Assembly (NCBI GenBank): GCA_037140515.1
Contig: JBAXEI010000002.1
Coordinates: forward strand, 39,703 to 103,702
Direction: 5' to 3'
From: Candidatus Berkelbacteria bacterium
Lineage (GTDB): Bacteria > Patescibacteriota > UBA1384 > XYA2-FULL-43-10 > 1-14-0-10-43-13
DNA: 64,000 nucleotides
The translations under genes were made by a program, and so were the position numbers. Below, piece after piece: positions 13,372-58,690 of the stretch. How positions within the stretch are numbered: position 1 is the first letter of the stretch; each line of letters begins with the position of its first letter. A model generated the notes under the pieces. That model did no database searches and had not been told where the DNA came from. It saw nothing but the letters and a program-made list of their open reading frames with translations.

Positions 13372-13373
13372 AT

Positions 13374-16846: not shown

Positions 16847-16933
16847 TTAGTGCCTCGTCTGAAATCGATTTTTTGACTAAATACAAGTGCCAAAATTTCT
16901 TCTCTGAGACACAATATTATTGTGGAAAAGTAT

Positions 16934-16963
16934 TTGGTATTCTCGCATAAATTGGTCTATAAT
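16934..16963 (+). promoter_or_regulatory. Candidate promoter for the giant gene.
   Basis: TTGGTA, 18-nt spacer, TATAAT. A GGGGAGGG RBS sits at about 17000, ahead of the ATG at 17013. Confidence 0.3.
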
Positions 16964-17012
16964 TAGATTAATAAAAACTAACGTTTTTCATATTTCGGGG
17001 AGGGAAGCGTAG

Positions 17013-29141: not shown

Positions 29142-29822
29142 ATGGATTTGGAAAATGTGCTAAAGGGGCAGACCCCAGCACCGGCCACTTCTGGCCAATC
29201 GCCTGAGGCGGAGATCACACAATTTCAAGAGAAAAATAAAGTGAATATTTCACTGGTTTTACTTTGGTCTGCTGCGGCAATTGCCGTTCTCGGGACAGGT
29301 TTATTCTTCTTGCTAAGCTCAAGCGCTCACCAAGACGTTGTCGAGTATCAAAAAACATTGGTTGCCAAAGATGACGAGATTGAAAAGGGCAAGAAAAACG
29401 CAAATGAAAAGGAAATCGTATCAATAAAAGCAGTCGTCGCTCAGCTAAAAAATGCTGAAGCAAACCGTTTCTCAATGGTTGATTTTTTGCCTTTGTTTTT
29501 CGCTCATGTAGATAAAAATGTAACTCTAAATACTCTAGCAGTCTCAAGCGAAGGTGTAATCAGCTTCACAGGCAATACCGATAGCTTCAAATCGGCCGCT
29601 GAACAGGTTATGGCTTTGAAGGCATGGAAAATCAAGGATACTGAAGCGCTTTCGGGTGTGAACCTCGGGGCTGTCTCAGCAACTCGAAGTGAGGATGGCA
29701 AGGTTACTGTTCCTATCGCTATAAACGCTACGTTTGATAAGAAATTGCTCCCAGACGCGATTGCATTAGTGCCTTCGACTAGCGGCACAACAACAGGAGG
29801 TTCAAATGCCAAAGTTCAATAA
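29142..29822 (+). CDS. Bitopic membrane protein, PilN-like type IV pilus alignment/assembly protein (tentative).
   Basis: Short cytoplasmic N-terminus, one TM (ISLVLLWSAAAIAVLGTGLFFLL), a coiled-coil segment and then an extracytoplasmic domain. First gene of the pilus operon. Confidence 0.45.
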   Translation: MDLENVLKGQTPAPATSGQSPEAEITQFQEKNKVNISLVLLWSAAAIAVLGTGLFFLLSSSAHQDVVEYQKTLVAKDDEIEKGKKNANEKEIVSIKAVVAQLKNAEANRFSMVDFLPLFFAHVDKNVTLNTLAVSSEGVISFTGNTDSFKSAAEQVMALKAWKIKDTEALSGVNLGAVSATRSEDGKVTVPIAINATFDKKLLPDAIALVPSTSGTTTGGSNAKVQ

Positions 29823-30336
29823 CGAGAGATTCCAAGCTGTTTGTGCGGTTTTCATAGCAATTGCAGCGATTGTAGTCTGCTGGCAGTATGCGCTCCCATC
29901 ATACAACAAGAACGTATCAGATCAAGCAAAATATAAGGCTGATGTAGCTGCTGCCGACATTAAGCTCGCTTCTGTCAAGAAAAATGAGAAGGTTTTTAAC
30001 GACTCACAGACCAGCGCAACTATCAATTTACTCAACATTGCAATTCCTGAGGACAAGGATTTACCAAATCTTATAACAGAGCTAGAGGCAATCGCGACAA
30101 ATCATGGCATGTTTATCCCTGCGCCATCTATTACTGACGGCACAGACAACACAGTTATGATTTCTTTTGGAATATCCGGGACGCTACAGGAGCTAACAGA
30201 TTTCATGACAACAATCCAAAAAGATTTACGATTTTTCAATATCAAGAGCGTCAGCATGTCAACCTCAAAGGACATCGTAAACATGTCCCTCTCAATAGAA
30301 GCATACAAACGTGCTAGTAGCGCTGTGGCCAAATAA
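29806..30336 (+). CDS. Bitopic membrane protein, PilO-like (tentative).
   Basis: N-terminal TM AVCAVFIAIAAIVVCW. Overlaps the upstream gene by 17 nt. Lies in the pilus operon. Confidence 0.4.
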   Translation: MPKFNNERFQAVCAVFIAIAAIVVCWQYALPSYNKNVSDQAKYKADVAAADIKLASVKKNEKVFNDSQTSATINLLNIAIPEDKDLPNLITELEAIATNHGMFIPAPSITDGTDNTVMISFGISGTLQELTDFMTTIQKDLRFFNIKSVSMSTSKDIVNMSLSIEAYKRASSAVAK

Positions 30337-30347
30337 AGGAGAAAGCT

Positions 30348-30620
30348 ATGAAGACAAAATTAGATCCTAAAATTTTATCGCTTATCGGCGGCATCGCGGC
30401 CGTAGTCCTAGTGATTGGCGCATTTTTGTACATGTGGCAAAACGGTAAACCTGTAGCAGGGGAAAAAATAATCACAGATGTAAAATACAAGACTGTCGAA
30501 ATCGGTACGACTATTGCCGACGCCCAGATTATGATGAACAAATTATCGTCAAAAGCCACGCTACCAGTGACAGCACCGACAGCAGATAAAATTGGCAAAG
30601 ACAATCCATTTACTCCATAA
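30348..30620 (+). CDS. Small single-TM protein, possibly a PilP-like pilus accessory component.
   Basis: 90 aa with TM ILSLIGGIAAVVLVIGAFLYMW. Sits between the PilO-like gene and pilB. Confidence 0.35.
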   Translation: MKTKLDPKILSLIGGIAAVVLVIGAFLYMWQNGKPVAGEKIITDVKYKTVEIGTTIADAQIMMNKLSSKATLPVTAPTADKIGKDNPFTP

Positions 30621-30710
30621 ACTACGTATCTCTGACTTCCATCTAGAAAATTGTTTTGCTGAATAAAACAGTTTTGTTTCGGTAGAATTTAATCATCAAA
30701 AGTTTTTTGA

Positions 30711-33185
30711 ATGCCAACACAAACACAGAATTATAACTATCTCGATCCAGCTCTTACCAGCCAATCAGTTCTGGACGTTTTTGTGCTACAGGATTTGATT
30801 GATCCTGAGGATGCTAGGAAGCTGCAGAAGAAGCTAAAGACCAATCGTGAAATTGAGAATTTTTTGTTAAAAACAAAAATTGTTACCAAAGAAACGATCA
30901 ACAAGGCCTATGGCATCATGCTAAAACTGCCTTTTATCGAGATAAAAAATTTGGATATTCCTGAGTCAGTTTTGTCTATGGTTCCGGAGAAATTAGCACG
31001 AAAATACCAAATTATTCCGATCGGTATAGAGGACAATTTAGTTCGTGTCGCGACCGCCAATCCTGCCGATCTATTAGTCGGCTATGACACGGGAATCGGC
31101 AAGCTATTCGCAGAAAAAAAGTTGGAAATCGAGCTTTTTCTTACAGGAACAGCTGATTTCGAAGAAGCGGTCAAACAGTATCGAAAAGGTTATGAAAACG
31201 ATCTGCTGGTAAAGAAGGGCAGCGTACCTGCTATTTATTTGCGAAACCAGACGATCAAAGAGCAGTACCTGGACAAGATACCTCGAGATTTTATCGAAAA
31301 GTATAGAATGGTTGTTTTTGGTCAAAACAAAAAAGGCACATACCTTATCGCATGCGAGAAGCCAGATGATCCCGAGACGTTGAAAATTCTCAATTTCATA
31401 AGAAGTGAAAACAACATAAATTTTGAAAAATTTGGTACCTCTCGAGAAGATATAGACTTTGTAATCAATCTTTTGAACAATCCAAGCGGAGCACGCCAAA
31501 CACATGGTTCTCTCACTATAGAGACCAAATCTGCAGAAAATACGAATTGGGCAAATGACTCTGCAACTAGTACTGAGATGGCAAAGCTCAAAGGTCAAAA
31601 AGTTCAGAGAGGCAACACTGGTCCAACGCTGAAGGATGTATTCAAAAGCATGGTTAATACATCTTCGGAGGATACTTCTGGCGATATTACCATTGATAGC
31701 ACTGAAACAGAGAAAGAATACGAGGAAAGTCTTCATGAGACAGATATTGTTGAAGACAAAGGTGAAGTATCACCCAAAAATGATTTAGCCTCAACAACAG
31801 GTGCTCCCGAAGCTACTTCGGAAGTACTCCCTGACAATGAAAACCCTGAGGTGAAAAAGTCTGCTGATGCTCCGGAAGAAGCCTCTGATACTGAGGGGGA
31901 GATGGGCTCTTGGGTTGATGACAAAGACCTCGGGTCATTACTAACAAAAGAAATTCTGACAGAAGCCGATTTAGCCGAGGCCTCAAAACAAGGCTCTGTT
32001 CCACATATTGTGGCTGCTGTCCTCGACTATGCTCTAAATAATCGGTCTTCCGATGTCCACGTTGAGCCCGAGGCAAAAGTATTGCGAATTCGATGTCGTG
32101 TTGATGGAATCTTGAAAGATATTATGAAACTACCAATGAAGTTTCACCCTCCGTTTGTGAGTCGAATTAAGATCATGTCAAAACTGAAAATTGATGAAAC
32201 TAGAATTCCACAAGATGGACGATTTGATACTATATTCAAGGAGAGAGAAGTTGATGTTCGTGTTTCGACTTTGCCGACTGTTCATGGTGAAAAGATCGTG
32301 ATGAGAGTTTTGGACAAGAGTCAAGGGATTCTTTCTCTTGAAGATCTTGGTATGCAGGGTAGCGCATTTGAGGAGACAATAGCCGCTATCAAGAAACCAT
32401 ATGGCGTAATCCTCGCTACCGGTCCTACTGGCTCAGGTAAATCCACGACACTATATGCGGTCTTGAACAGAATTAGTTTGCCGGGTGTGAATATTGTGAC
32501 GCTTGAGGATCCAGTCGAGTACGAAATACCAGGGATAAATCAGTGTCAGATAAAGCCAGAAATCGGCTTCACCTTCGCTTCAGGCTTGAGAAGCATTTTG
32601 CGCCAAGATCCAAATGTGATCATGGTTGGTGAGATCCGCGATGGTGAAACCGCTGGCATGGTTACGCATGCGGCTTTGACCGGCCACTTGGTTCTCTCGA
32701 CCTTGCATACAAACGATACTGCTGGAGCTCTGCCTCGCATGATAAATATGGGCGTAGAACCTTTTCTCATTACTTCCTCGATAAATCTCATAGTGGCACA
32801 GCGTTTGGTCCGAAGAATATGTCCGAAATGTAAAGAGGAGATGGTGGTCCCACAGAAGCTAATGGATGAGCTGAAGGCTGAGCTTGATCTGATTCCGGCG
32901 ACAAACGTAAAAGACCGAGAAAGAATTCCAGCGGAGCTAAAGCTTTATCATGGCAGAGGATGTTCTGACTGTCACGATGGCTACAAAGGCCGCGTTGGCA
33001 TATATGAAGTCATGACGATGAATCCAGATATTGAGGAGCTTGCAATAGAGAAAAAATCTGCAAATGATATCAAGGAAGCATCAATCAAAAATGGCATGAT
33101 CACGATGAAACAGGACGGAATCATCAAAGCATTTATGGGCGAGACAACCGTCGATGAGATCTTCCAAGCGGTTGTGGCTGATTAG
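30711..33185 (+). CDS. pilB: Type IV pilus assembly ATPase (PilB/GspE family) with a duplicated N-terminal GSPII_E_N domain and a ~170-aa acidic low-complexity insertion.
   Basis: Walker A ILATGPTGSGKSTTL. Asp/His boxes. Tetracysteine motif CPKCKEE...CSDCHDGYKGRVGIYEV. The N-terminal N1 domain ends near aa 250 and a second N1-like domain resumes at about aa 430. Confidence 0.9.
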   Translation: MPTQTQNYNYLDPALTSQSVLDVFVLQDLIDPEDARKLQKKLKTNREIENFLLKTKIVTKETINKAYGIMLKLPFIEIKNLDIPESVLSMVPEKLARKYQIIPIGIEDNLVRVATANPADLLVGYDTGIGKLFAEKKLEIELFLTGTADFEEAVKQYRKGYENDLLVKKGSVPAIYLRNQTIKEQYLDKIPRDFIEKYRMVVFGQNKKGTYLIACEKPDDPETLKILNFIRSENNINFEKFGTSREDIDFVINLLNNPSGARQTHGSLTIETKSAENTNWANDSATSTEMAKLKGQKVQRGNTGPTLKDVFKSMVNTSSEDTSGDITIDSTETEKEYEESLHETDIVEDKGEVSPKNDLASTTGAPEATSEVLPDNENPEVKKSADAPEEASDTEGEMGSWVDDKDLGSLLTKEILTEADLAEASKQGSVPHIVAAVLDYALNNRSSDVHVEPEAKVLRIRCRVDGILKDIMKLPMKFHPPFVSRIKIMSKLKIDETRIPQDGRFDTIFKEREVDVRVSTLPTVHGEKIVMRVLDKSQGILSLEDLGMQGSAFEETIAAIKKPYGVILATGPTGSGKSTTLYAVLNRISLPGVNIVTLEDPVEYEIPGINQCQIKPEIGFTFASGLRSILRQDPNVIMVGEIRDGETAGMVTHAALTGHLVLSTLHTNDTAGALPRMINMGVEPFLITSSINLIVAQRLVRRICPKCKEEMVVPQKLMDELKAELDLIPATNVKDRERIPAELKLYHGRGCSDCHDGYKGRVGIYEVMTMNPDIEELAIEKKSANDIKEASIKNGMITMKQDGIIKAFMGETTVDEIFQAVVAD

Positions 33186-33252
33186 CAAATTTCTTGCATG
33201 TGGAGAATAATATAGATATACTGTAAACAGAATATAAAGACTTTGGAGGGGT

Positions 33253-34320
33253 ATGACAGAGACAAAAGGTAGCGAGATTTCGACATATCTGAACTATGCT
33301 ATCAGTAACAATGCATCAGATATTCACATAAACGTTGGCGTGCCAGTAAACGTTCGTATTGATGGTAAGCTTATGCCTATTCCAGAGGCCTTGAAGGTTG
33401 ATGAGCTCAAGGCAAAGGAGCTGGTTTCCGCATTTACTCCGCCAGATATGCTTTTGTCGCTCAAGCAGAAACGGGAGATAGACTTTTCGTTTGGTTTCCA
33501 GAGCATGCGTTTTCGTGCGAATGTCTTTTATCAAAAAGGTTCTATCTGTGCTTCATTGCGTTTGATTCCAAAAGAGCTTCGTAGCTTCGCTGACCTTGGT
33601 CTGCCGCCAATTCTTGAAAAGTTTACAGAGCACAGCCAAGGGTTTGTAATCATCACCGGTCCTACTGGCTCAGGTAAGTCAACAACTCTCGCTGCTATGA
33701 TCGACAAGATAAATAGCGAAAAGCGAAAACACATTATCACTATCGAAGATCCTATAGAGTATGTATTTGAGCACAAACAATCTCTTATTTCGCAGCGTGA
33801 AGTCGGCTCAGATACAAATTCCTTCGCTCGAGCACTACGCTCTTCGCTTCGTGAAGATCCAGATGTCGTTCTGATCGGTGAAATGCGAGATCTCGAAACT
33901 ATCGAGGCGGCTATCACTCTTGCTGAAACAGGTCACCTAGTTCTTACGACTTTGCATACAAACTCTGCTGCTCAAACTGCAGACCGTATCGTAAATGTCT
34001 TCCCACCTCACATGCAGCAACAAATTTCTAGTCAGCTTGCATCAGTTCTTCTTGGGGTCGTTTCTCAGCGTTTGATTCCGAAGATAAATGGCGGACGCGT
34101 TATGGCTGCTGAGATCATGATTGCAAACACCGCTATCAAAAGCTTGATCCGTGATGGCAAGAATTACCAAATTCCAAATGTCATCTCGACTTCAGCCGCT
34201 GATGGTATGATCAGTCTCGATAAAGTGCTTGCAGAGTATGTTTCAAGAGGGGATATCTCACTTGAAGAAGCGCTAAACTTTTCACTTGATCCAAAAACTT
34301 TCAAGATGATGGTATACTAA
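33253..34320 (+). CDS. pilT: Type IV pilus retraction ATPase (twitching motility protein).
   Basis: FVIITGPTGSGKSTTLAAMIDKIN, ITIEDPIEYVF, GEMRDLETIEAAITLAETGHLVLTTLHTNSAAQTADRI. 355 aa and no N-terminal extension. Confidence 0.9.
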   Translation: MTETKGSEISTYLNYAISNNASDIHINVGVPVNVRIDGKLMPIPEALKVDELKAKELVSAFTPPDMLLSLKQKREIDFSFGFQSMRFRANVFYQKGSICASLRLIPKELRSFADLGLPPILEKFTEHSQGFVIITGPTGSGKSTTLAAMIDKINSEKRKHIITIEDPIEYVFEHKQSLISQREVGSDTNSFARALRSSLREDPDVVLIGEMRDLETIEAAITLAETGHLVLTTLHTNSAAQTADRIVNVFPPHMQQQISSQLASVLLGVVSQRLIPKINGGRVMAAEIMIANTAIKSLIRDGKNYQIPNVISTSAADGMISLDKVLAEYVSRGDISLEEALNFSLDPKTFKMMVY

Positions 34321-34343
34321 TATCAATTAATCACACCCAATAA

Positions 34344-35546
34344 ATGCCACGTTATCTTTACAAGGCAAAAAACAATAAGAGCGAGATTGTAACTGGTACA
34401 GTTCGCGCAGACAATCAGATCGAAGCTGAGAAGCTTTTGGTTCGGCATGACTTTGTGCCTATTGAGATTACACCAGAGCAGAAAAAAAGCTTTGGCTCTA
34501 TGCTTTTCAACAAAGTATCGGTCAAGGACAAGGCAGTTTTCTCGCGTCAGCTCGCTACAATGCTAAATGCTGGCTTACCACTGACCAAGGCGATCAGTAT
34601 TCTCGCAAAACAGGCAAAAACAGAGCATTTACGTCAAATATTTGTTGATATTTATACTGATCTTCAAGAAGGCTACAATTTTTCATCGGCCTTATCCAAG
34701 CATCCCGAGGCATTTGATCGTGTCTTTGTAAGTATCGTGAATTCCGGCGAAACGACCGGTAAACTCGACGTTGTTTTGAGCGAGCTAGCTGAGCAAATGG
34801 AAAATGATAGCTCATTTCTGAGCAAGGTTTACTCCGCGCTGTATTACCCTGCATTTATCTTTGTCGCACTTATCGGCGCTGCAGTAGTCATGATGATTAT
34901 GGTCGTCCCTAAGCTAAAAGGAATGTTTACCGAAAACGCGACCGAGCTGCCTGTAATTACGAAAATACTACTTTCTATGTCCGCCTTTATGGTTTCATAT
35001 TGGTGGCTACTTCTTATTATATTGGTCGCGCTTATAGTCTTTTTGAAATCGTGGCTCGGCACAGAGAAAGGTTCTAGAGCTATTCACTCTCTTCAGATTA
35101 CTATTCCAGGACTAAAAAATATCTTTGAAGGTATTTATATGTACCGCTTTACTAGGACACTGGCGATGCTTATTGGCGCTGGCGTCCCTTTGCTTGATGC
35201 GCTTCACATCAGCGCTACTGTTATGGATAATCCACTCTACGAAGACGCGATCAATCGTGTCTCCTCGCAGGTAGAAAAAGGTATGTCTCTATCTACTCAG
35301 CTCATGAAAGAAAAGTATTTTCCACCACTTGTCGGTAATATGGCGGCAGTTGGTGAAGAGACGGGTGAGCTGGATAAAGTTCTGATAAAAGTTTCTGAGT
35401 ACTACGCTCAGGCGACGTCTGATCTGACGAAGGCTGTGACTTCGCTTGTCGAACCAGCGGTCCTTTTGCTGGTCGCTGCTGGTGTTGTTTTTCTCGTATT
35501 TGCAATCTATATGCCAGTCATACAGATGAGTAATTTTGGTGGCTAA
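34344..35546 (+). CDS. pilC: Type IV pilus platform protein (PilC/GspF family).
   Basis: Two T2SSF repeats, three TM segments and conserved GxxLxxALxI regions. Confidence 0.9.
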   Translation: MPRYLYKAKNNKSEIVTGTVRADNQIEAEKLLVRHDFVPIEITPEQKKSFGSMLFNKVSVKDKAVFSRQLATMLNAGLPLTKAISILAKQAKTEHLRQIFVDIYTDLQEGYNFSSALSKHPEAFDRVFVSIVNSGETTGKLDVVLSELAEQMENDSSFLSKVYSALYYPAFIFVALIGAAVVMMIMVVPKLKGMFTENATELPVITKILLSMSAFMVSYWWLLLIILVALIVFLKSWLGTEKGSRAIHSLQITIPGLKNIFEGIYMYRFTRTLAMLIGAGVPLLDALHISATVMDNPLYEDAINRVSSQVEKGMSLSTQLMKEKYFPPLVGNMAAVGEETGELDKVLIKVSEYYAQATSDLTKAVTSLVEPAVLLLVAAGVVFLVFAIYMPVIQMSNFGG

Positions 35547-35715
35547 TATTTGCATGGTTTTTGGAAATAGCTTATAATATTTATAAATAAATTATCAATA
35601 TTAATGTCTTTGCTCGGTCGATCAAAGCTTTATATAAAAAATTTGCTTCTTGTTAAGCAGACTTGAAGCAAGCAGATATCTGCTTTTAGAAAATATGAAA
35701 ATGGAGGGAAGAAAA

Positions 35716-36177
35716 ATGAAAAAGTTAAAAGGTTTTACGCTTGTAGAGCTTTTGGTAGTTATCGCGGTCATTGGTATCTTGTCAGCTGTAGTTATCTTGA
35801 ACACAAACAGTGCCAAGGTAAAAGCTAGAGAAGCCAACATGAAGACAACTCTCGATACTGTCCAAAATATCGGTGTCTTGTGTGCTGACGGTACTACGGT
35901 TGGTAATCTAGATTCCGCTGACGCCTATGTTGCAAAGTCAACTGGTACGACAACGACTCCAGCTATTTGCAACGGTGCAAGTCCAGCTATCACTGATGTC
36001 TGGCCTGTACCTGAGTCTGGCTACTACTATGCAGTCAAGAGCGGTAGTTCCGCAGACCCTACACTCAAGGATTGGCGTATCTATGCTTCTAAGGTTGGAA
36101 CAGCAGGAACCTATGTTTCAACAGACACACCAGTGATAATGTGCTCTGCTTCGAAGTGTTCAACCAATGCGTTTTAG
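35716..36177 (+). CDS. Type IV major pilin (class III signal peptide).
   Basis: MKKLKGF/TLVELLVVIAVIGILSAVV prepilin leader with the G-1/F+1/E+5 signature. C-terminal Cys pair. GGAGGG RBS. The ORF track begins upstream at 35650. Confidence 0.85.
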   Translation: MKKLKGFTLVELLVVIAVIGILSAVVILNTNSAKVKAREANMKTTLDTVQNIGVLCADGTTVGNLDSADAYVAKSTGTTTTPAICNGASPAITDVWPVPESGYYYAVKSGSSADPTLKDWRIYASKVGTAGTYVSTDTPVIMCSASKCSTNAF

Positions 36178-36193
36178 TTTTACGTTCTTTTAC

Positions 36194-36217
36194 GTTCGGC
36201 AAAGATCTTTGCCGAAC
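36194..36217 (+). terminator. Perfect 24-bp palindrome/hairpin immediately after the pilin gene. A possible terminator or protein-binding site, though it lacks a T-run.
   Basis: gttcggcaaaga|tctttgccgaac. A 12-bp perfect inverted repeat centred on agatct. Confidence 0.35.
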
Positions 36218-36439
36218 TAAAAGAGGGCAAAGTTTACAAATAGATAGATAATCGAGAGTCGGGACTTGCGGCTTAGGACCAAGGGCTCGGTATTATATCT
36301 TGTCATCCCGTACTGCGGCATGAGATACGGGATCTTGAGCAAAATTTCAAAAAGTATACGCGCAAGATTCCTGCTTCCGCAGGAATGACATGAAAAAAGC
36401 TATCACTAACGCAAGCCCACTTGCAGAAATGGATTTACG

Positions 36440-37216
36440 ATGGATGCATACTATTTAATTTTCTTATTTATATTGGGCCTAGCGATCGGCTCTTTTCTAA
36501 ATGTCGTCATTTTCCGAATGGATGAGCTGAAGACGATTCTTTATGATCGTTCGCATTGCCCATCTTGCAAGAAAATACTCAAATGGTATGACCTAATTCC
36601 TTTTCTTTCATTTGTAATGCTCCGGGCGAAGTGCCGATATTGTGGTAAGGGGATTTCTTATCAATATCCTATAGTTGAGCTATGCACGGGACTACTATTT
36701 GCCTTTCTTTTCTTATTCTTTGGTATTAGCTGGACTCTAGTCGTCTACCTAATAATTTTTTGCATTCTTATTGTTGTCTTCGTTTATGACTTGAAGACAC
36801 AAACTGTGCCAGAGATATTCGTTTGGATCGCTCTAATACTGTCTGCGGCTTTTGGCTGGTACTTTGGCCATTTTAGTTTTATTGAAATGATTCTTGGTGG
36901 CTTGGTCGGCGGCGGATTTCTTGCAATATTGGTCTTGGCTTCGAAGGAAAAGTGGATGGGCGCCGGAGATATTAAGATCGGCTTGATCCTAGGCTTTTTG
37001 CTTGGCTACCCAAACGCACTGTTTGCTATGTTTTCTGCCTTTGTCCTTGGCTCGCTTGTCGGCCTCTTGTATGTCTATCTGAAAAATAAATCTATTAAGC
37101 GTGAATATCTGAAAGAATCTCTGCCTTTTGCACCATTTCTGATCTTCGCGACACTTATCGGTCTCGTTTATGGGCCACAGATTGTTGCATGGTATTTGGG
37201 CGGAATGTATTACTAA
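36440..37216 (+). CDS. pilD: Prepilin peptidase (A24 family, PilD).
   Basis: N-terminal CPSC...CRYC zinc motif. Catalytic Asp boxes VYDLKTQTVP and GAGDIKIG. Eight TM segments. Confidence 0.9.
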   Translation: MDAYYLIFLFILGLAIGSFLNVVIFRMDELKTILYDRSHCPSCKKILKWYDLIPFLSFVMLRAKCRYCGKGISYQYPIVELCTGLLFAFLFLFFGISWTLVVYLIIFCILIVVFVYDLKTQTVPEIFVWIALILSAAFGWYFGHFSFIEMILGGLVGGGFLAILVLASKEKWMGAGDIKIGLILGFLLGYPNALFAMFSAFVLGSLVGLLYVYLKNKSIKREYLKESLPFAPFLIFATLIGLVYGPQIVAWYLGGMYY

Positions 37217-37232
37217 AGCCTTGGAGGGCAAT

Positions 37233-37766
37233 ATGAAATCACGAAAAGCATTTACTCTCATCGAGCTACTGGTCGTCATTGCTGTGATCGGTATACTCTC
37301 TGCTGTAGTTGCTATCAGCACAAATGGCGCAAAGATAAAGGCTCGTGATGCACAGAGAAAAGGGGACCTGCTAAAAATTGCTTCTGCGCTGGAAATATAC
37401 AGAACGGATAATAAGTCCTATCCGTCATACTCGACTACTGCGAAACAGACTGTGCTTAATCTTGCACTTACTAATTCTCTAGTCCCCACATATCTCCCAA
37501 CCATGCCTACTGATCCTCAGAATAGCTCTTCTGTTTATTACGATCAGCAGTATGTATATACTTCTGATAGCACTACGGCGAATCCAGCCGTTCCAGTAAA
37601 ATCAACAAAATTCTCATTGTATGCTGTGCTCGAGAGGCCAAGCTCTGCCGACACTGCTACTGTACCAGTGCAGGCCACGACGTTGTGTCCAAAGTTTCCC
37701 TCCGGTAATCAAGTTTCTTCTCCTGTGAAATCGCCATCATATGCCGTAGTCGGAAATTGTAAATAA
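37233..37766 (+). CDS. Pilin-like/pseudopilin protein (minor pilin).
   Basis: MKSRKAFTLIELLVVIAVIGILSAVV prepilin leader. The ORF track starts at 37170, overlapping pilD. Confidence 0.75.
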   Translation: MKSRKAFTLIELLVVIAVIGILSAVVAISTNGAKIKARDAQRKGDLLKIASALEIYRTDNKSYPSYSTTAKQTVLNLALTNSLVPTYLPTMPTDPQNSSSVYYDQQYVYTSDSTTANPAVPVKSTKFSLYAVLERPSSADTATVPVQATTLCPKFPSGNQVSSPVKSPSYAVVGNCK

Positions 37767-38378
37767 ATGATGAAAAAGGCATACACACTAATCGAGCTTT
37801 TGGTCGTAATCTCCATAATCGGCTTTATGGCTATCTATTGTGTTCCTGCTTTTGCGAAGTTTGGCCGTAGTAGTGATTTCAAACAGAAGTCAGATGAGGT
37901 GAAAATTCTGATGCAGCGAACTTATGCGCTCTCCAGAAGCCCAGAAAATACGAGAGTACAGTACTATCGTATGAGGGTTGATAGTCAAGCGTTTGTTCTT
38001 GAGAGAACTGAAAAAGTCTCGCCTGTACTTTCTGCTGACTGGACTGAAGTCAGTCGAGTAGAGAAGCTGCTAAATAGTCCCGCAGGATCAGGTACGGCAA
38101 ATAACCTTCAAACAATTCAATGTGATAATGCACCCGGAAACACTGCTTGCGTGATACTTACATGTTCTGTCAATCCACAAAAGAAGTGTGATATCTCAAC
38201 TATTCCAACTGCGCCAATCACTACAATGTCCCAGATATCTCTTCGCGATTATAAAATATCTGGGATGAAAAACTTAGCCAACTTCACTTTCGAAGGAGTG
38301 AACAAGGATGGTGCTTATGATAGTGGCTTTAAGAGCAACAGCCCCTTTAATGTAGTGTTGACCTATACCCAAATATGA
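37767..38378 (+). CDS. Minor pilin/pseudopilin.
   Basis: MMKKAYTLIELLVVISIIGFMA prepilin leader. Confidence 0.7.
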   Translation: MMKKAYTLIELLVVISIIGFMAIYCVPAFAKFGRSSDFKQKSDEVKILMQRTYALSRSPENTRVQYYRMRVDSQAFVLERTEKVSPVLSADWTEVSRVEKLLNSPAGSGTANNLQTIQCDNAPGNTACVILTCSVNPQKKCDISTIPTAPITTMSQISLRDYKISGMKNLANFTFEGVNKDGAYDSGFKSNSPFNVVLTYTQI

Positions 38379-38944
38379 TGATGAAAAATACAAAAAAAGC
38401 TTTTAGTCTTATCGAAGTCCTGCTTGCAGCGACTATTATTGTGATACTACTCTATGCGCTTGTGGCAGCAGGCAGATCAGCTCTTCGGAACTCATCGTCA
38501 ATACATGAAAAAGCTCAAGCAATGTTACTGGCTCAGCAAGGTCTTGAGATTGTTCGTCAAATCCGTGATACAAATTGGATCGACGCAAATCAGCAGAATT
38601 GGAGCAACTTTTCCTTTGATACTACTGAAAAGTGGAGAGACAAAAGTGGCTCAGATATGAAAATTAAATTTGATTCACTTTCTGAGGCGAAGAGGCCATT
38701 CCTCGATGTTTTAGCCGCACCTGCCGATTATGAAATTATTTCCGTAGATAATCTTGAGTACCATAGGATAGTCAAGTATGTGAAGCTTGCTTCTGCAAAT
38801 ATGCCAGAGGGCATCGGTAGCGGAGGAGCGATCCAGCCCGCGGATAATGCCGTGAAGGTAACCGTCACCGTCAGCTGGGATACAGGGACACCACAATCGC
38901 TTAGCATCAGCGAAGTATTAACAAATTGGCGACCAAATTACTAA
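38375..38944 (+). CDS. Minor pilin/pseudopilin (PilW/GspJ-like).
   Basis: KKAFSLIEVLLAATIIVILL N-methylation-type leader. Overlaps the upstream gene by 4 nt. Confidence 0.65.
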   Translation: MMMKNTKKAFSLIEVLLAATIIVILLYALVAAGRSALRNSSSIHEKAQAMLLAQQGLEIVRQIRDTNWIDANQQNWSNFSFDTTEKWRDKSGSDMKIKFDSLSEAKRPFLDVLAAPADYEIISVDNLEYHRIVKYVKLASANMPEGIGSGGAIQPADNAVKVTVTVSWDTGTPQSLSISEVLTNWRPNY

Positions 38945-38945
38945 A

Positions 38946-39707
38946 ATGACTCAAAAAACCAACAAAAAATCAAAAGCGTTCACTCTTCTTGAGCTGCTAG
39001 TCGCCACAACTATTTTTGGCATTGTGATGATGATGGCGATGAGCGCTATTACAGATAGTGCAAACTATTTGGCGAAGCTCAAGGCGATGCGTGTTGCCTC
39101 TGAAGAATCCAGAAGAATTGCGGATATTCTTGGCGAAAATATCAAGAACGCAAATAGCGAGATTAGCGTCACGTTCACCTCTGGCGGTATAGTACATACT
39201 GGCGAGCTATACAAATCTGGCATAGCCTTATTTAGTTGTACAGCAGCTGGAGCGTGCGATGCTACTCATTCTACTATTTTCGACCAATCGATGAGCGATT
39301 CAAACGCAGCTGCATTTGGTGCAAACACTCTTGTTCTCGGCGAAAAAGACACTAGTGGCAATCTTGTTTACAAGGTGTATTACAATAATAAGGATGAAGC
39401 TGAGCCAAAGCTATACTATTGGGAAGGAAGTTCCTTGGTTCTTGACTATAATTTTTTTAGTACTCTGATGGTAGATGCAAACGTGATCGCAGGTGGTGCG
39501 GTTGCCGATCTCGATTTACAAAATAATATTATAATAAAATTTGGGGGATATGCACCAAATAGCGTTACTATGCTGGACTCTGCGCAGCGTCAGCAATCCT
39601 ATGTTTTTTACAATATAAACGTAAATACTCGCGGTACTGGCCTGAAACGGCAAGAGCTTTTCAATATCAACGTCTTGTCTGGCGTTACCTCTAGGAATTA
39701 TAACTAA
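38946..39707 (+). CDS. Minor pilin/pseudopilin.
   Basis: KSKAFTLLELLVATTIFGIVMMMAM leader. Confidence 0.7.
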   Translation: MTQKTNKKSKAFTLLELLVATTIFGIVMMMAMSAITDSANYLAKLKAMRVASEESRRIADILGENIKNANSEISVTFTSGGIVHTGELYKSGIALFSCTAAGACDATHSTIFDQSMSDSNAAAFGANTLVLGEKDTSGNLVYKVYYNNKDEAEPKLYYWEGSSLVLDYNFFSTLMVDANVIAGGAVADLDLQNNIIIKFGGYAPNSVTMLDSAQRQQSYVFYNINVNTRGTGLKRQELFNINVLSGVTSRNYN

Positions 39708-39806
39708 TGATCGGGCTACGTGTGCTGGTTTTCCAAGTAATTGCTTGCTAGTTTCACCATTTTGAGCTATTTTTAGATAGATAAACTATTTATTTTGGAG
39801 ATCACT

Positions 39807-40802
39807 ATGACAAAAAGAATATTCTCAGGCATTCAACCTAGCGGCATTATCCATCTGGGTAATTATCTCGGCGCGATCAAACAGTGGGTAGATACACAGG
39901 ATACAGCTGATCAAGCGATTTTTTGCGTTGTAGATCTTCATGCGATTACTGTTCCTCAGGATCCGAAGGCTCTGCAACAAAATATTCTAAACGCCGCTGC
40001 ACTCTACATCGCTTGCGGTGTGAATCCAGAAAAAGCCGTGATATATGTTCAGTCTAGTGTGCCACAACATTCTGAGCTGATGTGGATCCTGAACACAATC
40101 GCGACAATGGGCGAACTTTCACGGATGACTCAGTTCAAGGAGAAGTCTGCGAAGAATACAAATTCTGACTCTGTGGGTGTTGGTTTGTTCGACTATCCAG
40201 TACTGATGGCTGCTGACATCCTCCTATATGGTACAACTCACGTTCCTGTCGGTCATGATCAGAAACAGCATGTTGAGCTAGCTAGAGACTTGGCGCAGAG
40301 ATTCAATTCTCGATTTGGCGAGACTTTTGTAGTTCCAGAGCCAATAATCAAGAAAGAAAGCGCACGGATTATGGGACTTGATGATCCGACAAAGAAGATG
40401 AGCAAATCAGCTTCTTCACCGCTAAATTATATCGCGATGACTGATGATGCAGAGACAATCCGCAATAAGTTCAAGCGTGCTGTTACAGATTCTGGCAGCG
40501 AAATAGTTGCTCGTGAGGATAAGCCTGCTATCACAAATTTACTTAATATTCTGAGTGAAGTCTCTGGAAAATCAGTTGCAGAACTTGAGAAAAATTTTGC
40601 AGGCATTGGCTACGGTGATTTCAAGATGGCAGTCGCAGAGGCAGTTATCGAGTATCTCAAACCAATTCAGGACAAGTATTTCGAATTGTTGAAAGACGAG
40701 TCCAAGCTGAAAGCAATCTTGCGAGAAGGTGCCGAGCGAATCGCACCGATTGCCAAAAAAACGCTCAAAGAAGTTCAGGAAAAAGTAGGCTTGGGAATCT
40801 AA
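39807..40802 (+). CDS. trpS: Tryptophanyl-tRNA synthetase.
   Basis: Class I HIGH-like GIQPSGIIHLGNYLG and KMSKS motifs. GGAG RBS 7 nt upstream of the ATG at 39807 (the track begins at 39795). Confidence 0.9.
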   Translation: MTKRIFSGIQPSGIIHLGNYLGAIKQWVDTQDTADQAIFCVVDLHAITVPQDPKALQQNILNAAALYIACGVNPEKAVIYVQSSVPQHSELMWILNTIATMGELSRMTQFKEKSAKNTNSDSVGVGLFDYPVLMAADILLYGTTHVPVGHDQKQHVELARDLAQRFNSRFGETFVVPEPIIKKESARIMGLDDPTKKMSKSASSPLNYIAMTDDAETIRNKFKRAVTDSGSEIVAREDKPAITNLLNILSEVSGKSVAELEKNFAGIGYGDFKMAVAEAVIEYLKPIQDKYFELLKDESKLKAILREGAERIAPIAKKTLKEVQEKVGLGI

Positions 40803-40807
40803 TATAT

Positions 40808-41260
40808 ATGGATACAATTTACATAAATACAGATGGGGGATCGAGGGGCAATCCAGGGCCAGCGGGTATTGGAATCATCTTTTTTGATGACCAAAGCAAA
40901 CAGATGCATAGCCACAAGGAGTGTATTGGCGATGGCACAAATAATGAAGCGGAGTATACCGCCATCATCCGAGCACTTGAGATTTTGCTCAAAAGTAAAT
41001 GGTTTGCGGACAATAACTTGGCTGATAAAAAGGTGATTTGTCGTCTCGATTCGAAGCTTGTAGTCGAGCAGATAAATGGCAATTGGAAGGTGAAAGAAGC
41101 CCGTCTGAAGGACTACGTGACAAAAATCCGTGCAATGGTAGACCAGATGCATCTACATATCTCTTTTGTTCACATTCCTCGAGAAGAAAATTCTGCCGCT
41201 GACGCCTTGGTAAACCTTGCTCTGGACGAGCAGGCAAAGAATCTAAATAGCTTAACCTAA
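40808..41260 (+). CDS. rnhA: Ribonuclease HI.
   Basis: INTDGGSRGNPGPAGIGI, NNEAEYTAIIRALE and catalytic DSKLVV...HIPREEN..AD. Confidence 0.85.
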   Translation: MDTIYINTDGGSRGNPGPAGIGIIFFDDQSKQMHSHKECIGDGTNNEAEYTAIIRALEILLKSKWFADNNLADKKVICRLDSKLVVEQINGNWKVKEARLKDYVTKIRAMVDQMHLHISFVHIPREENSAADALVNLALDEQAKNLNSLT

Positions 41261-41267
41261 AAATATT

Positions 41268-41489
41268 ATGAAAATAACCGTACGCGTAATTCCAAACGCG
41301 AAAACGCTAAAAGTCGAGAAGCATAGCGATGGAACCTTGAAGGTCTGGGTCACTGGCAAGCCATTTCGTGGTGCTGCGACGCTAGAAGTGATTGACGCGC
41401 TATCTGCCTTTTACAAAATTCCAAAAAGTCTTATCACTATCGTAAAGGGTCTTACTTCACGAAATAAGGTTTTTGATATCGACAATTAG
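41268..41489 (+). CDS. DUF167/YggU-family small protein.
   Basis: ITVRVIPNAK...LKVWVTGKP.RGAATLEVIDALSAFYKIPKSLITIVKGLTSRNK matches the YggU pattern. Confidence 0.6.
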   Translation: MKITVRVIPNAKTLKVEKHSDGTLKVWVTGKPFRGAATLEVIDALSAFYKIPKSLITIVKGLTSRNKVFDIDN

Positions 41490-41553
41490 TTTTTCTAGAC
41501 CTGCTGTGAAATCGGGTGTATGATATAGAAGAACAAAAAATGGAGGGAAATAG

Positions 41554-42168
41554 ATGAAACTAAAAAAGGGTTTTACGCTCGTAGAACTTCTTGTCGTCAT
41601 TGCAGTGATCGGCATTCTTTCTGCTGTTGTAGTTCTAAATACAAACAGTGCAAAGAGTAAAGCACGTGACGCGATCAGGCTTTCTGATATGGCTACTTTG
41701 AAGACGTCTTTAGGCTTATATTTAGAAGCAAATGGAAAATACCCTGACCAGCGTCCGAGCCCTGATCCAAGCACGACTTGTTTGACGAACTGTGTTATCA
41801 GCCGTAGCGACACAGCTATGGATGGTAATCCCGGTAAGTATATTTCCGACATGGATACGTATTTCCCAGGTGGCCTCCCAAACGATCCGATAAATAAGTC
41901 AAACGGATCTGGCAATTATTTTTATTCGTATCAAGCTATTGTAGTAGTTTCCGCGGTTTCGCCACCATGTGATGTCTCAAAATATTCTCGTCGCATTCTT
42001 TTGGGCGTAAGGACCTTTGAATCAATACCTGCTTATACACGTCATCCGAAAAGTCCGATTCAAGAAGCACAGGCAGAATGTTGGCCATCAGCTAATGACT
42101 CAACCTGGGTAACAAATGGTAGCAATATGCTGCGAGAATGGGGATACACAGTTCTTGAAGAGAAATAA
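41554..42168 (+). CDS. Type IV major pilin, paralog of 35716..36177.
   Basis: MKLKKGFTLVELLVVIAVIGILSAVVVLNTNSAKSKARDA is nearly identical to the N-terminus of the other pilin. Same AAAATGGAGGGAA leader. Confidence 0.85.
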   Translation: MKLKKGFTLVELLVVIAVIGILSAVVVLNTNSAKSKARDAIRLSDMATLKTSLGLYLEANGKYPDQRPSPDPSTTCLTNCVISRSDTAMDGNPGKYISDMDTYFPGGLPNDPINKSNGSGNYFYSYQAIVVVSAVSPPCDVSKYSRRILLGVRTFESIPAYTRHPKSPIQEAQAECWPSANDSTWVTNGSNMLREWGYTVLEEK

Positions 42169-43952: not shown

Positions 43953-43972
43953 TGTTCTATAAATGGAGGGAA

Positions 43973-58550: not shown

Positions 58551-58690
58551 AATTTTGATAAGAATGTGATGGTTTCATACTATTCATGCTTATCAAAATA
58601 AAACTCATGAAAATGAGTTGATAACGCAACTGACTTTGTGAATCGAAGATTTGCAAAGTAGTATCCCAAAATTTGTTTGGAGGAAATGCC

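Follow-up and report, generated by a model that had tools for sequence, protein, structure and literature searches.

The window analysed here, a stretch of 64,000 nucleotides, contains a genuine, intact and retractable type IV pilus (T4P) cluster of Candidatus Berkelbacteria. It matches a deposited Candidatus Berkelbacteria MAG (locus tags WCI57_010xx) whose PGAP annotation already names PilO, PilT and the pilins. Between positions 29142 and 42168 the genes are arranged in the order pilN-like, pilO, a 90-aa open reading frame (orf90), pilB, pilT, pilC, pilA1, pilD and four prepilin genes, with a second pilin gene, pilA2, beyond trpS, rnhA and a DUF167 gene; all catalytic motifs of the pilus machinery are intact. 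Very probably, these genes build the retractile, type IVa-like pilus of a CPR bacterium with a monoderm-type envelope; they are orthologous in their order to T4P-1 of TM7x (Saccharibacteria), and the pilus would serve mainly in attachment and movement. Its most unusual points are that pilM is not found next to the cluster and that a giant lectin-rich surface protein is a constant companion of the pilus genes. The features of the extended locus are as follows.

10717-13371, +, g884, membrane-anchored glycine-rich, beta-rich surface protein, paralogue of g847
13374-15917, +, g847, second glycine-rich surface protein, identical to NCBI WCI57_01015
15896-16846, +, g316, Sec-signal protein of 316 aa, aligns to P0001 residues 1-305 and ends ...DKLGIISIAGD
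17013-29066, +, giant surface protein of 4017 aa with N-terminal membrane anchor, four LamG/ConA-like domains and DUF2341 (Pfam)
29142-29822, +, PilN-like bitopic protein with 38-aa cytoplasmic N-terminus, one TM helix (about residue 39) and external domain
29806-30336, +, PilO (PF04350, 1e-5, 26.2 bits against a cut-off of 22; PilO in PGAP)
30348-30620, +, orf90, small bitopic protein between pilO and pilB, C-terminal motif LP(V/I)..P...K.G..NPF
30711-33185, +, PilB extension ATPase, 824 aa (PF00437, 3e-126, plus MshEN)
33253-34320, +, PilT retraction ATPase, 355 aa (TIGR01420, 443.2 bits against a cut-off of 319.1, model positions 2-342 of 343)
34344-35546, +, PilC platform protein, two T2SSF domains (PF00482, 1.8e-58)
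35698-35710, +, 13-mer AAAATGGAGGGAA, strong Shine-Dalgarno site of pilA1
35716-36177, +, pilA1, 153-aa prepilin with four Cys, leader MKKLKG/FTLVELL
36189-36222, +, strong hairpin just after the pilA1 stop codon (inverted repeat I20)
36440-37216, +, PilD prepilin peptidase and N-methyltransferase (PF06750, A24_N_bact, 7.5e-33; PF01478, Peptidase_A24, 9e-13)
37233-37766, +, min1, GspG-like pilin, leader MKSRKA/FTLIELL (N_methyl plus T2SSG; TIGR01710, 3e-14)
37767-38378, +, min2, minor pilin, leader MMKKA/YTLIELL
38375-38944, +, min3, minor pilin, weakly PilV/GspI-like, leader MMMKNTKKA/FSLIEVL
38946-39707, +, min4, largest minor pilin, 253 aa, leader MTQKTNKKSKA/FTLLELL
41537-41549, +, second copy of the 13-mer AAAATGGAGGGAA, ribosome-binding site (RBS) of pilA2
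41554-42168, +, pilA2, 204-aa orphan prepilin after trpS-rnhA-DUF167, leader MKLKKG/FTLVELL

All genes named in the first-pass annotation are found on the + strand at these positions, as judged by Pfam and NCBIfam matches. Its description of the locus as complete is right for the genes that it named, but holds only on condition that the pilus can do without PilM or that another part of the genome encodes it; likewise, the cluster is contiguous from pilN to min4, but trpS, an RNase H gene and a DUF167 gene (39807-41489) intervene before pilA2. The boundary at 29142 was drawn too narrowly: the conserved unit starts upstream, with the surface-protein genes at 10717-29066. The order from pilN to the pilins is repeated in 11 related Patescibacteria genomes and in four more metagenomic loci that reach beyond pilN (L020, L022, L023 and L024). 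In 11 close relatives trpS, rnhA and DUF167 are as syntenic as the upstream surface genes, so part of the locus conservation is mere genome collinearity.

The core machinery is identified by what is directly observed: which genes are present, their intact motifs, their synteny and the families to which they belong. The ORF at 29142-29822 has no Pfam match of its own; its positional orthologue in L013 matches PilN (PF05137, 1.2e-8, 35.3 bits, cut-off 22.8), and PF05137 matches at the pilN slot are also precomputed for L019, L020, L022 and L024. No INLLP-type PilM-binding motif was seen on reading the PilN-like N-termini. The small protein orf90 is present in nine of the 11 related loci and in L020, L022, L023 and L024. 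In PilB, two MshEN/GSPII-like domains at the N-terminus are followed by an acidic linker rich in Ser and Thr (about 150 aa, 266-420) and by the N2+CTD ATPase, which has its Walker A at 571, Walker B at 633, His box at 657 and, as a tetracysteine motif, CxxC at 704 and 751. It matches PDB PilB and PilF at 1e-114 to 1e-116, and TIGR02538 at 1.6e-161 with 538.7 bits, the latter under the trusted cut-off of 675.65 because the N-terminus is divergent. PilT carries Walker A, Walker B, His box and AIKSLIRD motifs and is no pseudogene: several independent assemblies yield the identical 355-aa product, on 11 contigs in all, and the NCBI annotation is likewise PilT (MEI7792055.1). The earlier argument from PilT to a retractile pilus is upheld by this bona fide PilT. 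PilD has two CxxC motifs and the catalytic Asp residues D117 and GAGD177.

Parts of this machinery resemble other systems, and the genes might encode a type II secretion-like or Com-type pseudopilus and not an extended surface pilus, a reading that we consider highly improbable. The best NCBIfam score of PilC is to GspF (337.7 bits), PilB scores nearly equally against the GspE (515 bits) and PilB (539 bits) models, min1 and both PilA proteins match the GspG model, and in the PGAP annotation pilA1 is a 'type II secretion system protein'. However, the GspE, GspF and GspG matches all lie under the trusted cut-offs, GspC, GspD, GspL and GspM are absent and no outer membrane has to be crossed; a type II secretion system was rejected on these sub-threshold likenesses and missing components. 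A ComG pseudopilus was rejected on scores under the cut-offs for ComGA (237.7 against 300 bits), ComGB (146.8 against 240) and ComGC (about 24 against 75), and is also contradicted by PilT, PilN and PilO, which Com systems lack. The combination of PilN, PilO and a PilT above the TIGR01420 cut-off is characteristic of type IVa pili (T4aP), and the collinear TM7x locus makes real pili, as seen by cryo-ET.

The window contains no secretin (PilQ) domain, as is to be expected, since PilQ is not found in CPR (PMC6744442). At 60885-62072, a DUF11 protein carries an LPQTG sortase signal, which suggests a monoderm-type envelope. The first-pass annotation held that the absence of both PilM and PilQ fits a Gram-positive-type envelope; neither gene is in the window and the envelope does appear to be of monoderm type, but the reasoning from PilM is faulty. 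PilM is a cytoplasmic protein and is present in T4P systems of monoderms. As it also belongs to the CPR T4P gene set (PMC6744442) and is present in both TM7x loci, the missing pilM next to pilN is a deviation and not an expectation. No window ORF matches PilM_2 or GspL, and pilM is likewise absent where Pfam annotation was precomputed (L001, L020 and L022-L024); in the 11 related loci, a reading of the ORFs that precede pilN shows secreted proteins, none of them PilM-like. Either the machine runs without PilM or pilM lies elsewhere in the genome.

Six N_methyl prepilins are encoded at the locus (PF07963 and TIGR02532 matches). Whether their leaders bear a PilD-cleavable G-1/E+5 signature had been raised earlier: E+5 is found in all six, G-1 only in pilA1 and pilA2, and A-1 in the other four, where cleavage by PilD is assumed; at +1, five have F and one has Y. 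The pilA1 start given earlier, TTG 35650, is corrected to ATG 35716 (153 aa). The pilA1 product, most likely the major pilin, is encoded in the slot of TM7x pilA1. In pilA2 the globular domain also has four Cys and is unrelated to that of pilA1, the near-identity noted earlier holding for the N-terminus (35 of 40 residues in common), with no likeness beyond it; an orphan pilin at the same position occurs in L007 and L013. Described earlier as a plain 'minor' pilin, min1 carries a third paralogous copy of the N-terminal helix seen in pilA1 and pilA2: it has 29 of 40 N-terminal residues in common with pilA1 (counted by hand), and a 119-nt DNA repeat family (D1) is common to the two genes. The last of the four, min4, is the positional counterpart of TM7x PilX1.

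The leader previously noticed upstream of both pilins is also present, the 13-mer AAAATGGAGGGAA occurring exactly twice, at 35698 and 41537; allowing one mismatch there are three matches, against 0.16 expected from shuffles. It is the Shine-Dalgarno region. A strong GGAGG RBS precedes pilA1, min1 and pilA2, and GGAGG also precedes the 4017-aa giant gene; within the window, the full GGAGG RBS is found only at genes of the extended pilus locus, the giant included. A promoter-like TTTGCA-18-TATAAT site lies before pilA1 at 35549-35578, and a promoter/terminator scan gave no enrichment over shuffles. The 262-nt pilA1-pilD spacer is structured (folding z = -4.06), and neither it nor its hairpin matches an Rfam family. 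The hairpin is probably a terminator/attenuator or an mRNA-stabilising element; together with the GGAGG sites and the promoter-like site, it may be read as a sign of high pilin expression.

Among the surface proteins encoded upstream of pilN is a conserved secreted beta-solenoid family, found immediately upstream of pilN in all 17 loci examined, with outer flanks that differ in some. A family profile search retrieved 258 clusters among 1.84 billion representatives, and all five diverse members sampled adjoin pilN. The C-terminal half of the family yields a confident beta-solenoid model (pLDDT above 90). By alignment, the family is split here between two genes: g316 supplies the N-terminal 300 or so residues (the first beta-solenoid rungs), a truncated form of about 300-320 aa that recurs in about 18 clusters, and the C-terminal 85 or so residues of the LamG-rich giant align to P0001 residues 306-388, the last rungs and PPGFRYLNIP tail of the family. 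The giant is intact in an independent assembly and in NCBI (MEI7792050.1), and has an NHL/Vgb-lyase-like beta-propeller region that matches Vgb_lyase, NHL and Reg_prop only. LamG inserts occur in 27 of 42 long family members, and VWA, FG-GAP, RCC1 or fn3 inserts are also found. Matches to DUF7305 are weak: family relatives score 12.7-37.5 bits against it (PF23981; gathering cut-off 27; L005 26.1, P0010 37.5) and 13 of the 42 long members match it at E<=1e-3; neither window piece, g316 or the giant, gives any match on its own. Pfam and NCBIfam give no match for g884, homologues of which precede the pilus genes in L005, L006, L008, L009, L013 and L014. The last 100 or so residues of g847 are common to ORFs of about 800 aa that precede the pilus operon in other lineages, with matches in L024 (789 aa) and L022 (480+ aa) at E about 1e-6, and in L010 and L011 a g847-like region, a VWA domain and the beta-solenoid family are fused in one protein.

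Synteny and domain content are what link these proteins to the pilus, and on that basis g884, g847, g316 and the giant most likely supply a host-binding adhesin module that works with it. The genes at 10717-29066 could instead be unrelated to the pilus, fast-evolving adhesins or S-layer-like proteins held in place by inherited gene order, which we think rather doubtful. The equal synteny of trpS, rnhA and DUF167, clearly without pilus function, is what such inheritance would produce; the upstream proteins have no pilin signal or pilus-family match, and the AF2 model (pLDDT 61) and fold search for g847 are poor and uninformative, respectively. Yet the family gene stays adjacent to pilN on the same strand even where the outer flanks differ (DNA pol III delta', PSP1 and TPR in L020/L023), and both the adjacency among diverse family members and the restriction of the GGAGG RBS to the extended locus argue for an association. 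The TM7x pilus loci, moreover, hold analogous lectin- or propeller-bearing proteins without PilD signals, PilX1 and PilX2, of which PilX2 is needed for host binding (PMC11623550).

TM7x T4P-1, the 'thick', essential, twitching system (PMC11623550), has the identical order from pilN to the fourth post-pilD pilin, with a small unnamed gene, TM7x_00430, placed in the orf90 slot from a locus-tag gap. Both have a single PilT (356 aa in TM7x, 355 here), a PilC of similar length (404 and 400 aa), further pilin genes elsewhere in the genome, lectin-type modules associated with the locus and a monoderm-type envelope with no secretin. They differ upstream of pilN, where TM7x has pilM and this locus has beta-solenoid family gene(s), and in PilB, which has 586 aa in TM7x and 824 here, including two MshEN-like domains as well as an acidic linker. 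TM7x PilX1 (380 aa) has a jelly-roll lectin-like domain without a PilD signal, whereas min4 (253 aa) has retained a class III signal and lacks a large lectin domain; the lectin (LamG) modules are here on a non-pilin Sec-type protein. The TM7x T4P-1 pili have been imaged and tied to twitching and essentiality (PMC11623550).

The diderm T4aP systems of Pseudomonas, Myxococcus and Neisseria have PilB, PilT, PilC, PilD, PilN and PilO in common with this locus, together with a major pilin and a four-gene minor-pilin block, but also have PilM, PilP and PilQ, none of which is found here. In concept the accessory protein would parallel PilY1, a large Sec-exported adhesin that is no pilin, has variable (VWA) and conserved C-terminal domains and is encoded alongside the pilus genes; unlike the PilY1 propeller, the conserved part of the accessory protein is a beta-solenoid, and no PilY1 domain (Pfam Neisseria_PilC / PilY1) is found in g316, the giant, g884 or g847 at E<=1. 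Streptococcus sanguinis T4P offer a monoderm context with PilT and two paralogous major-type pilins with near-identical N-termini (PilE1 and PilE2). There, vWA (PilB) and concanavalin-like lectin (PilC) modules of minor pilins are reportedly used in adhesion; these modules are grafted onto true pilins, whereas here they are on non-pilin proteins. S. sanguinis also has PilM, and pilA2 is here set apart from the operon.

The earlier proposal, DNA uptake and/or host attachment, stands better in its second half. That the locus is primarily a competence pilus, capturing DNA and pulling it to ComEC for DprA/RecA recombination or nucleotide scavenging, is in our view unlikely. PilT-driven retraction is a known mechanism of DNA capture in T4aP-dependent competence, and dprA is in the window. 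The supposed neighbourhood of dprA, mfd, recR and dinB carries little weight, however: dprA comes 8.5 kb after pilA2, from which PGA_cap/Memo, an unknown ORF, ftsW, nusG, rplK and mfd separate it, and adjoins topA, a common housekeeping pairing. No comEC, comEA or comF is found in the window. CPR genomes are enriched in ComEC and DprA together with T4P (PMC6744442) and Saccharibacteria are naturally competent (PMC10633639); in S. epibionticum, however, T4P genes are essential and comEC dispensable (PMC10633639), and TM7x T4P-2 makes no contribution to competence (PMC11623550). A further pointer is ComZ of Thermus thermophilus, a beta-solenoid tip pilin and DNA receptor, which the C-terminal half of the pilus-adjacent family weakly resembles (PDB 6QVI: E 0.086; 145 columns superposed, rmsd 3.3, 20% identity; PMC6561018). 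ComZ has a pilin domain and class III signal, whereas the family has neither and carries a Sec-type signal; there is no sequence-level match between the two, and the family profile found no PDB sequence. Since ice-binding beta-solenoids match as well or better, the resemblance is one of fold and not evidence of homology or DNA binding, and the accessory modules (LamG, VWA, FG-GAP) are of lectin or adhesin type, not DNA-binding.

For a pilus of attachment and movement, we infer the subunit roles, the adhesin function and the biological role as follows. PilD would cut the short basic leaders off the six prepilins, after G-1 in pilA1 and pilA2 and after A-1 in the other four, and would also N-methylate them. 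The four downstream pilins would prime assembly and finish at the tip, while PilB would polymerise pilA1 as the major subunit on a PilC platform held by PilN and PilO, and probably orf90 too; pilA2, and possibly min1, may be alternative or co-polymerising subunits. Depolymerisation of the fibre by PilT would then generate the pulling force. T4P and Com genes together are a hallmark of CPR (PMC6744442), and a type IV pilus cluster is an ordinary feature for Candidatus Berkelbacteria, which are uncultured ultra-small bacteria. Most likely the pilus serves chiefly for attaching to a host cell or surface and moving on it, with DNA capture for ComEC/DprA-dependent uptake as a possible secondary function.

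All of the predicted genes of the 64-kb window are carried on the + strand, and those between 29142 and 42168 encode a type IV pilus (T4P) machinery together with its pilins. The components of the cluster are as follows.

29142-29822, + strand: PilN-like, 226-aa bitopic protein with no family match of its own
29806-30336, + strand: PilO (PF04350, 26.2 bits; cut-off 22)
30348-30620, + strand: orf90, a 90-aa bitopic ORF of no family
30711-33185, + strand: PilB, 824 aa (PF00437, 3e-126; MshEN twice)
33253-34320, + strand: PilT, 355 aa (TIGR01420, 443 bits; cut-off 319)
34344-35546, + strand: PilC (two T2SSF domains)
35716-36177, + strand: pilA1, prepilin
36440-37216, + strand: PilD (A24_N_bact and Peptidase_A24)
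37233-39707, + strand: min1 to min4, four further prepilins (N_methyl)
39807-41489, + strand: trpS, RNase H and DUF167, housekeeping genes
41554-42168, + strand: pilA2, prepilin

The first-pass annotation had recognized a T4P cluster at this site and interpreted it as a retractile pilus; the observation is confirmed, and this core interpretation is right. The Walker A, Walker B and His boxes of PilB and PilT are all intact, as are the tetracysteine motif of PilB, the AIKSLIRD motif of PilT, and the two CxxC motifs, D117 and GAGD of PilD. PilN owes its identity to orthologues in the same slot that match PF05137 (35.3 bits against 22.8 in related locus L013), and precomputed Pfam annotations agree in four more loci. 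It had been considered that pilT might prove to be a pseudogene, but this is not so, because the identical PilT recurs on 11 contigs from several assemblies. The proteins of the window are identical to those of a MAG deposited as 'Candidatus Berkelbacteria bacterium' (WCI57_01015 to about WCI57_011xx; MEI7792049-MEI7792074), for which GenBank already gives the PGAP labels PilO, PilT, 'type II/IV secretion system protein' and pilins, while PilN, orf90 and the upstream surface-protein gene g316 are labelled 'hypothetical protein'. As a pilus locus, this is an ordinary example of a well-known CPR system that has already been machine-annotated.

Two smaller genes of the cluster deserve comment. 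In orf90 and its ~88-aa orthologues between pilO and pilB in L020, L022, L023 and L024, the C-terminus conserves the motif N..(L/I)P(V/I)..P...K.G..NPF; in TM7x the corresponding position is taken by a gene without a name. Speculatively, the NPF motif brings to mind PilP, and orf90 may be a minimal PilNO-binding partner; a role as PilP analogue finds no Pfam or HMM support. The DUF167 gene is present in two copies downstream of rnhA in related locus L006 (21097-21309 and 21939-22121), the products being 71% and 70% identical to that of the window.

The six prepilins begin as follows, with leader and mature start separated by a slash.

pilA1: MKKLKG / FTLVELL
pilA2: MKLKKG / FTLVELL
min1: MKSRKA / FTLIELL
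min2: MMKKA / YTLIELL
min3: MMMKNTKKA / FSLIEVL
min4: MTQKTNKKSKA / FTLLELL

The concern that these leaders might lack a G-1/E+5 signature is not substantiated: E+5 is found in 6/6 pilins, residue -1 is glycine in pilA1 and pilA2 and alanine in the other four, and both leader types are seen again in relatives. The major-type pilins pilA1 and pilA2 have 35 of 40 N-terminal residues in common and nothing beyond. A third paralogue is min1, which forms with them a 119-nt repeat family (68-73% identity), has 29 of 40 residues in common with pilA1 by manual count, and is GspG-like (TIGR01710, 3e-14).

Upstream of pilA1 and pilA2, the sequence AAAATGGAGGGAA had been described as a shared leader. It is real and occurs in two exact copies (three matches with at most one mismatch in all, where 0.16 are expected), but it amounts to a strong Shine-Dalgarno site, and the similarity is gone after about 24 nt. 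A common promoter of the two genes was considered and rejected, since their upstream likeness is confined to this 24-nt stretch around the ribosome-binding site (RBS). In six related genomes, pilin genes have comparable GGAGG(G/A)AA sites in front of them. Of the 37 genes of the window, only 7 have a full GGAGG in the 25 nt upstream of the start, all on the + strand (starts 17013, 29142, 29806, 33253, 35716, 37233 and 41554) and all within the extended pilus locus (7/17 genes versus 0/20 others; Fisher p about 0.002); a recognizable Shine-Dalgarno site is absent from most other window genes. A third copy of the pilin RBS 13-mer, TAAATGGAGGGAA, with one mismatch, is located at 43960-43972, within the 5' end of ORF 43952-45667 as annotated; the true start of this 571-aa exported protein may be the ATG at 43973. 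Neither sigma-70 promoters (24 found, 28 expected from shuffles) nor terminators (13 found, 10.7 expected) are enriched in the window.

The 262-nt spacer between pilA1 and pilD (36175-36440) is unusually structured, with a minimum free energy of -78.8 kcal/mol (z = -4.06) and three hairpins, among them ATTCCTGC-TTCC-GCAGGAATGAC; a strong hairpin (36189-36222) lies 3' of pilA1. This arrangement fits a highly expressed major-pilin gene. The ATTCCTGC-TTCC-GCAGGAATGAC hairpin of the spacer is single-copy in the window and resembles small palindromic repeat elements. The window contains no tRNA and no Rfam match at gathering thresholds; the spacer matches no Rfam family, an FtrB match within it being at chance level (E 0.44), and a search of the spacer for remnants of a pilin pseudogene found none.

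T4P are the best-supported host-contact organelles of CPR/Patescibacteria epibionts and are essential in two cultivated Saccharibacteria models. CPR genomes are enriched in co-localized PilB, PilT, PilC, PilO, PilN, PilM, PilD and pilins, have no PilQ, and carry ComEC and DprA (PMC6744442). In the saccharibacterium TM7x, T4P-1 is an essential 'thick' pilus tied to twitching (PMC11623550), and S. epibionticum can dispense with comEC but not with its T4P genes (PMC10633639). A retractile adhesion and motility pilus is therefore the best reading of the window locus. The pilus may also capture DNA, but the window gives no indication of it: the nearness of dprA, from which DNA uptake had been proposed, does not support it, since dprA lies 8.5 kb past pilA2, behind unrelated housekeeping genes and adjoining topA, and neither comEC nor comEA is present in the window. 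Compared with TM7x, the window locus is without pilM, and its PilB is enlarged (824 aa; 586 in TM7x), with two MshEN-like domains and an acidic linker of ~150 aa.

No PilM/GspL match is found when all window ORFs of at least 110 aa are compared with Pfam. Three proteins of ~300-400 aa and of no assigned function (g316, orf571 and the product of ORF 58673-59803) were considered as PilM and rejected, being secreted and not actin-like. Nor does a PilM-like ORF precede pilN in 11 related genomic loci, or PilM appear in the precomputed Pfam annotations of metagenomic loci. The first-pass annotation took the lack of PilM to fit a Gram-positive-type envelope; this argument fails, since PilM, a cytoplasmic protein, is present in monoderm T4P systems as well as in TM7x.

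Several neighbouring genes also encode surface or otherwise unusual proteins. A DUF11 surface protein (60885-62072) has at its C-terminus a classical cell-wall sorting signal for sortase, made up of LPQTG, a stretch of hydrophobic residues and KKRKE, which supports a monoderm-type wall. Next to a collagen-triple-helix-repeat protein (59811-60725; PF01391, 1e-16), a 376-aa secreted protein of no family (58673-59803) is encoded, the two making up a further surface-protein cluster. Directly after pilA2, a gene at 42186-43952 encodes a fusion of Memo-like and PGA_cap (capsule synthesis) domains, and L009 and L014 likewise have a PGA_cap homologue in the vicinity of their pilus loci. Mfd (48801-50660) has only 619 aa, about half the usual length, and retains UvrB_inter, CarD_TRCF_RID, DEAD and Helicase_C, with the usual N- and C-terminal domains missing.

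The gene directly before pilN ends in a conserved segment of ~85 aa (...GNNKIxAxxFC...GSFVAxxF...F.YDY...PPGFRYLNMPxPxExGN) in 11/11 related genomes, and likewise in the window, where it encodes a giant protein of 4017 aa (17013-29066). In six relatives, the segment is the C-terminus of one compact or expanded protein, the N-terminal ~300 residues of which are homologous to g316 (15896-16846); four relatives share with the window a break at one position (...KLGIIxxxG and stop), and the C-terminal piece is then encoded by a gene of its own further downstream. When 1.84 billion representatives were searched with a profile built on the compact form, 258 clusters matched (E<=1e-3), comprising forms of ~370-390 aa, about 18 truncated forms of ~300-320 aa like g316, and forms of 600-1430 aa. 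LamG is present in 27/42 long forms, with VWA, FG-GAP, RCC1 or fn3 in others; DUF7305, which is mentioned in none of the papers searched, is matched at E<=1e-3 in 13/42. All five diverse members with retrieved contigs lie directly upstream of pilN, including at loci with outer flanks unrelated to those of the window, and the four contigs that are long enough run on into pilO, the ~88-aa ORF and pilB; the contigs of split-form members P0020 and P0098 (~2 kb) are uninformative on context. The family gene is usually preceded by an ORF of ~800 aa that has its C-terminus in common with g847, another surface-protein gene of the window, and in L010 and L011 a single polypeptide combines the solenoid with a VWA domain and a g847-like region. 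Only six homologues of g847 were found; its AF2 model has a pLDDT of 61 and gives Foldseek probabilities of at most 0.06, save for scattered partial matches of ~130 columns to unrelated proteins (up to 0.84).

AF2 predicts the C-terminal half of the compact form to be a beta-solenoid (pLDDT above 90; 78 overall), whose Foldseek neighbours include ice-binding solenoids and that of ComZ, a tip pilin of Thermus (E 0.03-0.09). Homology to ComZ was rejected, as the family profile matches no PDB sequence and ice-binding proteins match equally well. With no sequence-level link to ComZ and no pilin domain in the family, the resemblance is one of predicted fold only; the signals of the family proteins are Sec-type, not class III. 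Long internal duplications are visible in the translation of the giant at about aa 700-1350 (for example, ...TWKINKPVAGTFVIPDSDFVFDNVVCDANYDAEFQKNG... and ...TWQFRMGAGAHVIADTDFIFNGVVCDANYRAEFLKKN...), and its sequence suggests growth by tandem module duplication.

A functional precedent for pilus-linked adhesin proteins is provided by PilX1 (a lectin-like jelly roll) and PilX2 (an RCC1 propeller) of TM7x, which are encoded in pilus loci without PilD signals, PilX2 being required for host binding (PMC11623550). Unlike PilX1, the fourth pilin of the window retains a class III signal and has no lectin-like domain. From synteny, gene fusions and domain content, we infer that g884, g847, g316 and the giant, the surface-protein genes upstream of pilN (10717-29066), probably form a pilus-linked adhesin module. 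A more specific model, which we advance as a long shot, is that this Berkelbacteria-type lineage runs a T4aP without PilM and binds its host through a modular beta-solenoid protein, not a pilin, encoded in the usual pilM slot, with the giant docked to g316. The solenoid would be split over two genes, g316 supplying the first rungs and the giant, with its LamG and propeller regions, the last rungs and the invariant PPGFRYLNxP tail. Beta-solenoid complementation would then dock the lectin array of the giant non-covalently, so that the array would be presented together with the pilus or pulled along by it, and exchange of inserts (LamG, VWA, FG-GAP, RCC1) would redirect the host range.

The window locus carries the characterized T4P-1 architecture over to Berkelbacteria. 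More interesting, though unproven, are its arrangement without pilM, the increased size of its PilB, and the conserved modular beta-solenoid adhesin family, split here and expanded to a LamG-rich giant. They raise the questions of whether PilN/PilO machines are functional without an adjacent PilM, or any PilM, and whether the pilus-linked determinant of host recognition is a small family of secreted, lineage-restricted beta-solenoids with exchangeable lectin and VWA modules. If the latter is true, the variable inserts would allow host specificity to be read from the genomes of uncultured CPR bacteria.
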